In this document: positions 4,846-4,970 of the stretch, one piece after another
How positions within the stretch are numbered: position 1 is the stretch's first letter
Layout of the letters: the number at the start of each line of letters is the position of its first letter
Source: an uncultured bacterium
GTDB lineage: Bacteria > Patescibacteriota > Minisyncoccia > UBA6257 > 2-01-FULL-56-20
Direction of reading: 5' to 3'
DNA: 64,000 bases
NCBI GenBank assembly: GCA_963807165.1
Contig: CAWDZM010000001.1
Location: 417,521 to 481,520 of the forward strand
The notes under the pieces: model-generated
Databases searched by the model: none
What the model was told of the DNA's origin: nothing
The model's input: only the letters and a program-made list of their open reading frames with translations
Program-made: the position numbers and the translations under genes

Positions 4846-4970
4846 GAAATAACCTTGCGCGACATAGCTTTTTAAGAACATCTCGGAAGTCGCGAAGGCG
4901 ACGAGAGTAAGCGCGCGGCCAACAGGCCGCGACGCGGTTCTTAAAAAGCTATGTCGCGCAAGGTTATTTC
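4846..4970. repeat. Structured element E1: a 34-bp perfect inverted-repeat stem around a 57-nt conserved core.
   Basis: The arms at 4846-4879 and 4937-4970 are exact reverse complements. The core has two internal hairpins and a conserved GAGAGTAAGCGCGC segment. The right arm overlaps the hisS stop codon. A paralog lies at 20586-20699. Confidence 0.7.

Follow-up and report, generated by a model that had tools for sequence, protein, structure and literature searches.

The two hairpin elements designated E1 and E2, found in a 64,000-nucleotide (nt) stretch of DNA from an uncultured bacterium of the Patescibacteria (hereafter the window), are members of an apparently undescribed family of structured modules, termed here E, in Paceibacteria-type Patescibacteria. 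Patescibacteria are ultra-small bacteria, mostly known from metagenomes. In all, 16 copies of the E core were found, all in DNA of Paceibacteria-type Patescibacteria and from independent assemblies; related loci from other assemblies (NCBI, ENA and JGI) are labeled L001, L002 and so on. The account that we tentatively prefer, although we would place it somewhat below an even chance, is that E is an exchangeable RNA module at the apex of hairpins for termination or processing, whose stems are maintained by template switching.

E1 occupies positions 4844..4972 and E2 positions 20579..20706, both entered without a strand. In E1, a perfect inverted repeat of 36 bp (4844-4879 / 4937-4972), continued by an imperfect stem extension out to 4835-4981, encloses a core of 57 nt (4880..4936). 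This core is composed of a first small hairpin (H1, 4881-4906: TCTC, bulge GGAA, GTCGC-GAAG-GCGAC, GAGA), a GTAA linker (4907-4910) and a second small hairpin (H2, 4911-4935: GCGCGCGGCC-AACA-GGCCGCG, a bulged A at 4932, and CGC). E2 has a perfect repeat of 28 bp (20587-20614 / 20671-20698) and a core of 56 nt (20615..20670), with H1 at 20616-20640 (TCTC, bulge GGA, GGCAC-GAGG-GTGCC, GAGA), the linker GTAA at 20641-20644, and H2 at 20645-20669 (GCGCGCAACC-AGCA-GGTTGCG, a bulged A at 20666, and CGC); beyond one C.A mismatch (20586/20699) its stem resumes for 7 bp more (20579-20585 / 20700-20706) into the 3' end of tRNA-Ile. An earlier, sequence-only reading of the window had given E1 a perfect stem of 34 bp, which is the part of the full 36 bp that falls within 4846-4970, and E2 one of 28 bp, which was confirmed. 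It had also stated that the stems differ except in their inner part while the cores share blocks, and that the tips of both internal hairpins carry compensatory changes; both statements proved exact. The sole stem sequence common to E1 and E2 is the inner stem AGCTTTTTRRGAAC, and the inner 14 nt of the E1 left arm (AGCTTTTTAAGAAC) are common to the two elements. The cores have the blocks ATCTCGGA, GAGAGTAAGCGCGC and GCGACGCGGTTC in common, and the exact 14-mer GAGAGTAAGCGCGC is present in the window in E1 and E2 only. Approximately 17 of 85 positions, counted by hand, differ between the two elements, the differences in both small-hairpin tips being compensatory.

Both elements fold to the same three-way junction on either strand (z = -13.6 to -15.6; 0 of 200 shuffles as good), with equal folding energies on the plus and minus strands, and a chance origin of this structure is excluded. 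The earlier reading had raised the possibility that the pair arose as an artefact of assembly or duplication, and nothing was found in its favor. The stems of E1 and E2 are different, as are both tips, and copies occur in many independent assemblies, some of them at orthologous loci; we consider an artefact refuted.

The search for further copies that had been proposed was carried out with sequence patterns and with a covariance model. An exact-pattern scan of one genome per species returned four loci, all from Patescibacteria or from uncultured metagenome-assembled genomes, and a pattern scan of metagenomes returned 17 loci, 12 of which are true copies. The covariance model, built from 12 copies, recovered all 12 and alone found two divergent copies (L017, 624-704, and L038, 3857-3937); it also gave a half copy in L030. 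The divergent copies in L017 and L038 retain UCUC/GAGA, the purine bulge, the GAAG loop, the A-containing bulge and the AGNA loop. In an alignment of 16 sequences, 97% of the pair positions are paired and both sides change in 20 of the 31 pairs. None of 500 shuffles matched the observed pairing and covariation, and sliding the structure by 1-3 columns left only 36-51% of the positions paired. Given for the window plus strand, the consensus has a closing stem of GGGAAC.A / GTTCCC or GAGGG.TT / TCCCTC; an H1 of UCUC, bulge GGA, 5 bp, a GAAG-type loop and GAGA; a GUAA linker; and an H2 of GCGCGC, 4 bp, an ANCA loop, GCG, a bulged A and CGC. The junction nucleotides differ among copies (GUAA, GGGA, GUCGAG), while the helices and loops are kept.

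A scan of the window with Rfam at gathering thresholds returned tRNAs only, and permissive Rfam scans of both strands of E1 and E2 gave generic matches to long-hairpin microRNA models, at 25-45 bits against thresholds of 62-114; taken over all sequences scanned, Rfam returned tRNA and rRNA matches and these spurious microRNA ones. No E copy was found in the viral contigs, phage records and plasmid records that were scanned, and literature searches yielded no account of the E element or of non-coding elements in Patescibacteria. Within the databases scanned, the family is so far restricted to Patescibacteria. By its HisS and RluD homologues, the window itself belongs to Candidatus Paceibacterota, and a RluD protein with 100% identity is recorded from a 726-kb contig.

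The orthologous copies in L015 and L018 indicate that the E core is under purifying selection in place. Their cores and inner stems differ only at three compensatory pairs, approximately 65 positions being unchanged; judged by eye, the two loci have roughly 85% identity in their coding DNA, and the neighboring spacer of 350 nt is unalignable. The claim of the sequence-only reading that E1 and E2 bear the signature of a selected secondary structure is upheld for the family and its core, by the 16 copies, by the 20 covarying pairs and by this comparison. It is not upheld for the long stems, in which Watson-Crick pairs are nearly universal and G-U pairs are few.

Over all helices, 568 pairs are Watson-Crick (98%), 7 are G-U, 4 are A-C and 2 are other mismatches. 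G-U pairs are no commoner than A-C mismatches, which are wobbles on the opposite strand, and with such nearly pure Watson-Crick pairing the long stems favor neither strand. Among the pair changes, strand swaps (GC to CG, AU to UA) are frequent. Compensatory evolution of an RNA does not usually leave near-absent wobble combined with strand swaps, and arm-to-arm copying of DNA fits the stems at least as well as selection on RNA.

The perfect stems of the copies range from 18 to 42 bp and start inside the upstream gene. The right arm of E1 (4937..4972) holds the last two hisS codons together with the hisS stop codon (TAA, minus strand, 4964-4966), which the earlier reading had correctly ascribed to E1; the outer 10 nt of its left arm (4844..4879) are an inverted copy of the hisS tail. 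The E2 stem takes in CGCACCA of tRNA-Ile, the stem of L008 includes the last bases of tRNA-Arg, and those of L015/L018 and L017 include stop codons. In L034, the stem at the tRNA-Ile gene takes in CGCAC (5 nt) of that tRNA, though its cap differs from E. Because gene ends of the hisS and tRNA type are constrained, the distal arm must be the copy. The hairpin-free relative L033 has retained the same A-rich tRNA trailer, and the far arm of L034 is a mirror of its own A-rich trailer. We therefore infer that the stems are made, extended and repaired by template switching: replication template switching in palindromes would create them, lengthen them and keep them perfect, although no single event was caught. 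Two published accounts document that template switching creates reverse-complement copies and homogenizes and expands repeat arms (PMC8794818, PMC13100816).

Such a mechanism raises the question of whether the whole element is a functionless by-product, with palindromes growing neutrally by template switching in repair-poor genomes and the core being an ancestral seed spread by gene conversion. Inverted-repeat density is very high in this radiation, its phyla having the highest of all phyla (PMC13155455), and many other long hairpins have unique loops; two of these are in the window, at 4496-4573 (26-bp stem, 96% complementarity) and at 47296-47375 (31-bp perfect stem). The way in which stems run into tRNA and coding sequence also looks mechanistic rather than designed. 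The unchanged core positions of L015 and L018 beside an unalignable spacer speak against a by-product, as does the persistence of the same sequence features in divergent copies of other genomes. Moreover, hairpin tips differ between copies in one genome, so gene conversion is not homogenizing them. We regard this explanation as highly improbable.

Two further features had not been part of the earlier reading: the terminator-like character of the outer hairpins, and the occurrence of other conserved caps at the same sites in relatives. As to the first, copies are found at the ends of genes for hisS (E1), tRNA-Ile (E2, L030), tRNA-Arg (L008), tRNA-Pro (L011), 23S rRNA (L002), a G6PD-like protein (L015/L018) and a protein of 147 amino acids (aa; L017), with the hairpin starting exactly at the 3' end of the upstream gene or a few bases inside it. 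When each hairpin is read in the direction of the upstream gene, A makes up 60% and purines 76% of the outermost 12 nt of the 5' arm, compared to 25% A in the window, and the 3' arm is consequently U-rich. This asymmetry is present in 15 of the 16 hairpins; the exception is L002, between 23S and 5S rRNA, where termination inside the rRNA operon would be harmful. The ordinary short terminators of the window consist of a perfectly paired A-tract, a GC stem, a short loop, a GC stem and a T-tract, and the long hairpins are built alike; in E1, a run of seven T lies four nt past the stem in the hisS direction. These observations suggest that the outer hairpins are transcript 3'-end hairpins, likely to act as terminators at gene ends and as leaky terminators or processing/stability stems inside operons.

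E1 lies between the 3' ends of two convergent genes: hisS (histidyl-tRNA synthetase; 4964..6277, minus strand), the 3' end of which is within the E1 stem, and a remnant of a coiled-coil protein gene (4669..4842, plus strand), truncated and frameshifted, with a reading frame that ends at 4834. E2 abuts the 3' end of tRNA-Ile(GAT) (20700..20774, minus strand), as had been noted, and the inverted repeat includes the last 7 nt of the tRNA. It is part of a unit of tRNA-Val, tRNA-Ile, E2 and rluD. The first gene is tRNA-Val(GAC) (20790..20863, minus strand), and the only promoter found for the unit is a sigma-70-like site, TTGAAA-17-TATCAT, at 20888..20916 (minus strand). The RluD/RluA-type pseudouridine synthase gene rluD (19794..20537, minus strand) is located 48 nt downstream of E2; in relatives it starts 26 nt past the tRNA. 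No promoter was found between E2 and rluD, and a search beside E1 or E2 for the promoter of a stand-alone transcript gave nothing convincing. As the only promoter-like site of the unit is upstream of tRNA-Val, E2 is expected to be transcribed on the minus strand and not to be a tight terminator. L008 (tRNA-Arg to tRNA-Ser) and L011 (tRNA-Pro to 23S rRNA) offer similar within-unit settings; in none of E2, L002, L008 and L011, all inside tRNA or rRNA units, was an internal promoter detected. The 23S rRNA gene of L002 (1-3292), which has its E copy in the 23S-5S spacer, is interrupted by a group I intron (1077-1285) and by a further insertion. The encoded 3' end of tRNA-Ile is ACCA in the window and ACAA in four relatives (L030, L032, L033 and L034); as the window's CCA sits in the E2 inverted repeat, the palindrome may have rewritten the trailer.

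A small structured RNA had been one of the options in the sequence-only reading. The structured family stands, but a free-standing RNA gene of about 125 nt is unlikely for E2, L002, L008 and L011, since these lie inside tRNA or rRNA units. In a broader form, the copies would constitute a family of trans-acting small RNA genes, with a core of ∼60-90 nt as the mature product and the stems serving for processing by the double-strand-specific RNase III, much like the processing stems of rRNA or of a primary microRNA; cleavage would free the core from any transcript in which it lies. The core keeps its sequence and structure while the flanking stems vary and is apparently selected in place; stems of 18-42 bp suffice for RNase III; there are several copies per genome, two of them in these 64 kb; and the few G-U pairs of the small hairpins lean toward one defined strand. 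Against this, Rfam has no match, no promoter is evident for the G-U-favored strand at E2, and conservation is in the helices and loops and not in the junction nucleotides. The element also runs with transcription at some loci and against it at others, so that different loci would yield complementary RNAs. In close relatives, 20-40 kb of syntenic DNA is devoid of E and has other caps in its place, which would be unusual for an essential RNA. We consider a trans-acting small RNA unlikely.

The replacement of caps is best seen at the two sites that carry E in the window. At the 3' end of tRNA-Ile, the window and L030 have E, L034 has a second cap (B), L032 a third (C), and L033 and L028 none. Cap B is composed of CGCTCC, a covarying 5-bp hairpin with an AAGC, AAGA or AGGA loop, and CCACTCGCT, on long stems that are mutually unrelated. 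The L034 hairpin (9888-9973), at the same site as E2, has a perfect stem of 20 bp. Two family B hairpins are present in the window, neither entered with a strand: one at 25219..25292 has a 21-bp perfect stem and the stop codon of the upstream gene in its left arm, and the second, at 52280..52353, has a 22-bp stem with 95% complementarity. Cap C has the core GGCAGATGATRGTTC (GCAGATGATAGTTC in L032), likewise on unrelated long stems, and is found in L022 (11896-11960 and 16400-16470), L026 (12661-12721) and L032 (about 9976-10040). In L032, the gene caller has absorbed cap C into an over-long RluD N-terminus. A 15-mer of cap C gave at least 120 matches in viral contigs, which were taken as chance and not used. 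In L030, the interval from tRNA-Ile to rluD holds a Fic-domain gene with its own promoter-like site (312-524; the same in L031), inserted where the H1 half and distal arm of E would be; only the proximal arm and H2 are left.

At the hisS 3' end, E is present in the window, a 27-bp stem with an unrelated 20-nt loop in L022, and a 32-bp stem with an 11-nt loop in L038/L039; L035-37, L023 and L026 are without a long hairpin there. At a HisS identity of 93-94%, the interior of the hairpin at this site is already fully turned over, and no base-by-base reconstruction of gain and loss was obtained. The convergent coiled-coil gene is common to the three lineages with hairpins at the hisS site and is intact in L022 (148 aa) and L038 (117 aa). 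It is found between hisS and rpsU only where long hairpins flank both sides, and relatives that lack the gene have no hairpins there. The second of these hairpins lies just upstream of the conserved rpsU promoter (4487-4459, minus strand, TTGCAA-17-TATACT); it has the unique loop at 4496-4573 in the window, is C-capped in L022 and is E-like in L038. With a constant site and hairpin but a changing cap, these comparisons point to movement or exchange of the caps.

One possible explanation for this exchange is that E acts at the DNA level, as a mobile or recombination element in which a transposase or recombinase recognizes the small hairpins, either in folded single-stranded DNA or in a cruciform (as with REPIN/RAYT, IS200/IS605-derived elements or attC), the element homing to hairpin tips at gene ends, with stems that grow by copying of the flanks. 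The same core at unrelated loci, its variable presence and the swapping of caps at one site among relatives would be accounted for, as would the lineage-specific abundance (E and B in the window genome, C in the L022/L032 genome). Almost purely Watson-Crick pairing without strand preference, the extrahelical base in H2, and the replacement of half the core by a Fic gene with its own promoter in L030 are also in line with it. However, target-site duplications are absent, the copies fall short of near-identity, and H1 and H2 are unlike each other; IS200/IS605-type elements have similar hairpins at both ends. Mobility alone does not predict that selection keeps resident copies intact. Linked recombinase or transposase genes, which the earlier reading had proposed to look for, do not appear next to E copies among the genes tabulated for the related loci. 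Of all loci looked at, only L034 has a recombinase gene (1-184), which encodes a large serine enzyme with Resolvase, Recombinase and Zn_ribbon_recom domains; the B-capped hairpin is 9.7 kb away, and no connection between this gene and the hairpins emerged. The consensus boxes of attC are absent, and phage, plasmid and viral-contig records gave no match. Taken together, a DNA-level element of this kind appears rather unlikely.

In the account that we tentatively prefer, an exchangeable apical module on 3'-end hairpins, the outer hairpin would belong to the local transcript: at gene ends it would be a terminator, often bidirectional, and inside operons, as in E2 (tRNA-Ile to rluD), L002 (23S to 5S) and L008 (tRNA to tRNA), a leaky terminator or a processing/stability stem. 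The stem would arise from local DNA, with the distal arm being made as an inverted copy of the upstream gene tail through replication template switching; having been built from local DNA, it would be locus-specific. The core would be the exchangeable part, spreading among hairpins in the manner of REP-, ERIC- or BOX-type elements. Selection would hold it at each locus, most likely as an RNA recognition site for a protein, and it may also be freed as a small RNA through cleavage of the double-stranded stem.

Several points weigh against this account. The search patterns themselves imposed part of the invariance of the core. A terminator needs no sequence-conserved cap, and any function of the core itself is a guess. 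E2 has no clear U-run after its stem and must let rluD be expressed, and a consensus terminator scan, which accepts loops of 3-8 nt only, was silent at E1 and E2. In addition, the orientation of E relative to the upstream gene is not uniform. The window plus-strand form is antisense to that gene in about eight loci (E1, E2, L002, L004, L008, L011, L015/18 and L030) and sense in L001 and L017, and L017b and L038 are between divergent genes. In the small hairpins, wobbles favor the window plus strand by 4:1 (L001, L008, L020 and L030 vs. L011), which is not significant, and that strand is antisense to most upstream genes, so a sense RNA is not favored. Assignment of a strand by wobble pairs was discarded, as 7 G-U vs. 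4 A-C overall and 4:1 in the small hairpins are too few to decide. The element may act in either orientation.

A bolder version of the preferred account, which we hold to be possible though on the unlikely side, is that the E core and the B and C caps represent a new kind of element: a module that colonizes the tips of terminator hairpins and is selected there, with a stem rebuilt by template switching, and which would then serve as a small RNA excised by a double-strand RNase, in the manner of a primary microRNA, or as a docking site for a Patescibacteria-specific RNA 3'-end factor. Independently of its function, the family is a well-defined conserved structure in the mostly uncultured Patescibacteria; 16 copies of it are aligned, and its covariance model works in searches. 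The model can be used on metatranscriptomes to study how reduced genomes end or process tRNA, rRNA and mRNA transcripts. The stems call for caution in RNA-motif discovery, where long, perfect and seemingly compensated helices can come from DNA-templated copying and not from selection on RNA pairing. The presence of E, B and C caps at the same two sites in relatives suggests an undescribed dynamic process.

Other features of the DNA were also noted. GC skew on the plus strand is negative throughout the window and most genes are on the minus strand; the negative skew makes the minus strand the likely leading strand. A tRNA with a four-base anticodon (agcc) was called by ARAGORN at 3227-3300 (plus strand), in the ybeY-ftsA spacer; it has no support from the Rfam tRNA model and is probably a false positive. 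The longest stem seen, in an inverted repeat of L037 (8671-8756), has 37 bp without a mismatch around a loop of 12 nt; it lies between a 504-aa gene and a peptidyl-tRNA hydrolase gene.

A number of known classes were examined and rejected. A riboswitch is not compatible with downstream genes that are unrelated (rluD, 5S rRNA, tRNA-Ser, 23S rRNA, rpsU) or with a P1 helix of 18-42 perfect base pairs and no alternative pairing. Hammerhead, twister, twister-sister, pistol, hatchet and HDV-like ribozyme models gave no matches even at E <= 10; by inspection there is no CUGAUGA/GAAA core of a self-cleaving ribozyme, and the junction nucleotides are variable. H2 together with GGUUC amounts to 34 nt, as does domain V of group II introns, but the pairing register is wrong, and most copies have UCCCUC in place of GGUUC. 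K-turns, sarcin-ricin/loop E motifs, GNRA or UNCG loops and loop-bulge pseudoknots did not fit on either strand by inspection. Mimicry of Shine-Dalgarno or anti-Shine-Dalgarno sequences (GGAGG/CCUCC) is not conserved among copies. For an inverton the segment is too short, and the orientation of the core is not random at orthologous loci; a scar of integration into a tRNA gene does not fit a tRNA-end repeat that is inverted and not direct.

The attC-like site and the MITE-like (miniature inverted-repeat transposable element) element suggested by the sequence-only reading were likewise abandoned. The outer RYYYAAC/GTTRRRY boxes of attC are absent; E1 has TAAGAAC/GTTCTTA and E2 GGGAAC/GTTCCC, and 7 of the 12 aligned strict-pattern copies (L001, L002, L003, L004, L011, L017 and L020) have GAGGG-type/CCCTC-type stems with no AAC/GTT. 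There is no cassette array around E, the neighbors being core genes (hisS, tRNA, rRNA, rluD), and no integrase is present in the gene tables of the related loci; the window's own open reading frames were not scanned for intI. With regard to a classical MITE, a terminal repeat is shared in part: copies of one subfamily agree in only the innermost 5-14 bp of the stem (the window has AGCTTTTTRRGAAC, other loci TTTTGGGAAC or GAGGG), and farther out each stem is locus-specific. No target-site duplication was found, and the flanks of the hairpin and of the 85-bp unit are inverted and not direct copies. The copies are not near-identical, orthologous E copies persist across diverged genomes, and no insertion sequence was seen nearby. 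REP/REPIN elements (repetitive extragenic palindromes) are imperfect palindromes of 20-40 nt that have a conserved GTAG-type motif at the 5' end, number in the hundreds and go with a RAYT gene; the conserved unit of E is a two-hairpin core of 57 nt without a GTAG terminus, and the 64 kb of the window contain 2 copies. No RAYT-like gene was seen, no genome-wide RAYT search having been made.

Despite these rejections, E has features in common with several known systems. As in attC, the palindromes, imperfect or perfect, are roughly 60-140 bp, structure is kept more than sequence and there is an extrahelical base; attC, however, conserves its ends (the R and L boxes) and varies in its center, and E does the opposite. 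The ssoA-type single-strand origins of rolling-circle plasmids are long hairpins with a variable stem and short conserved motifs in or near the terminal loop; they are plasmid-borne, single-copy and strictly orientation-dependent. E likewise combines a variable stem with a conserved tip, but it is chromosomal, multi-copy and located at gene ends, and has no plasmid match. With template-switch hairpins, E stems share perfect arms, mirrored multi-base changes, outward growth and compensation without wobble intermediates. Template switching is, however, a mutational mechanism and not an element family, and it would account for the stems of E and not for its conserved core.

The outer hairpin is closest to bidirectional intrinsic terminators, which are similarly placed directly after a gene and have an A-rich 5' arm in perfect pairing with a U-rich 3' arm, and an inner stem richer in G+C. 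It departs from them in a stem of 18-42 bp (about 5-15 bp in intrinsic terminators), in a "loop" that is a conserved three-way junction of 56-57 nt (3-8 nt in intrinsic terminators), and in the location of some copies (E2, L002, L008) where read-through is required. As a family, E resembles the REP/BIME, REPIN, ERIC, BOX, RUP and Correia-type elements. These too are short non-coding hairpin repeats with several copies per genome; they are situated in extragenic but transcribed DNA, as a rule at the 3' ends of genes or where two genes converge. Their families are lineage-specific, may be present in one relative and missing from another, and are believed to serve as terminators or stabilizers at the RNA level. 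In REP/ERIC-type elements the copies are near-identical and the conserved part is the stem, as a terminal inverted repeat. In E, by contrast, the copies are few and have diverged with compensatory changes, the conserved part is the apical 57-nt core of two hairpins, and the stem is locus-specific and apparently copied from the tail of the flanking gene.

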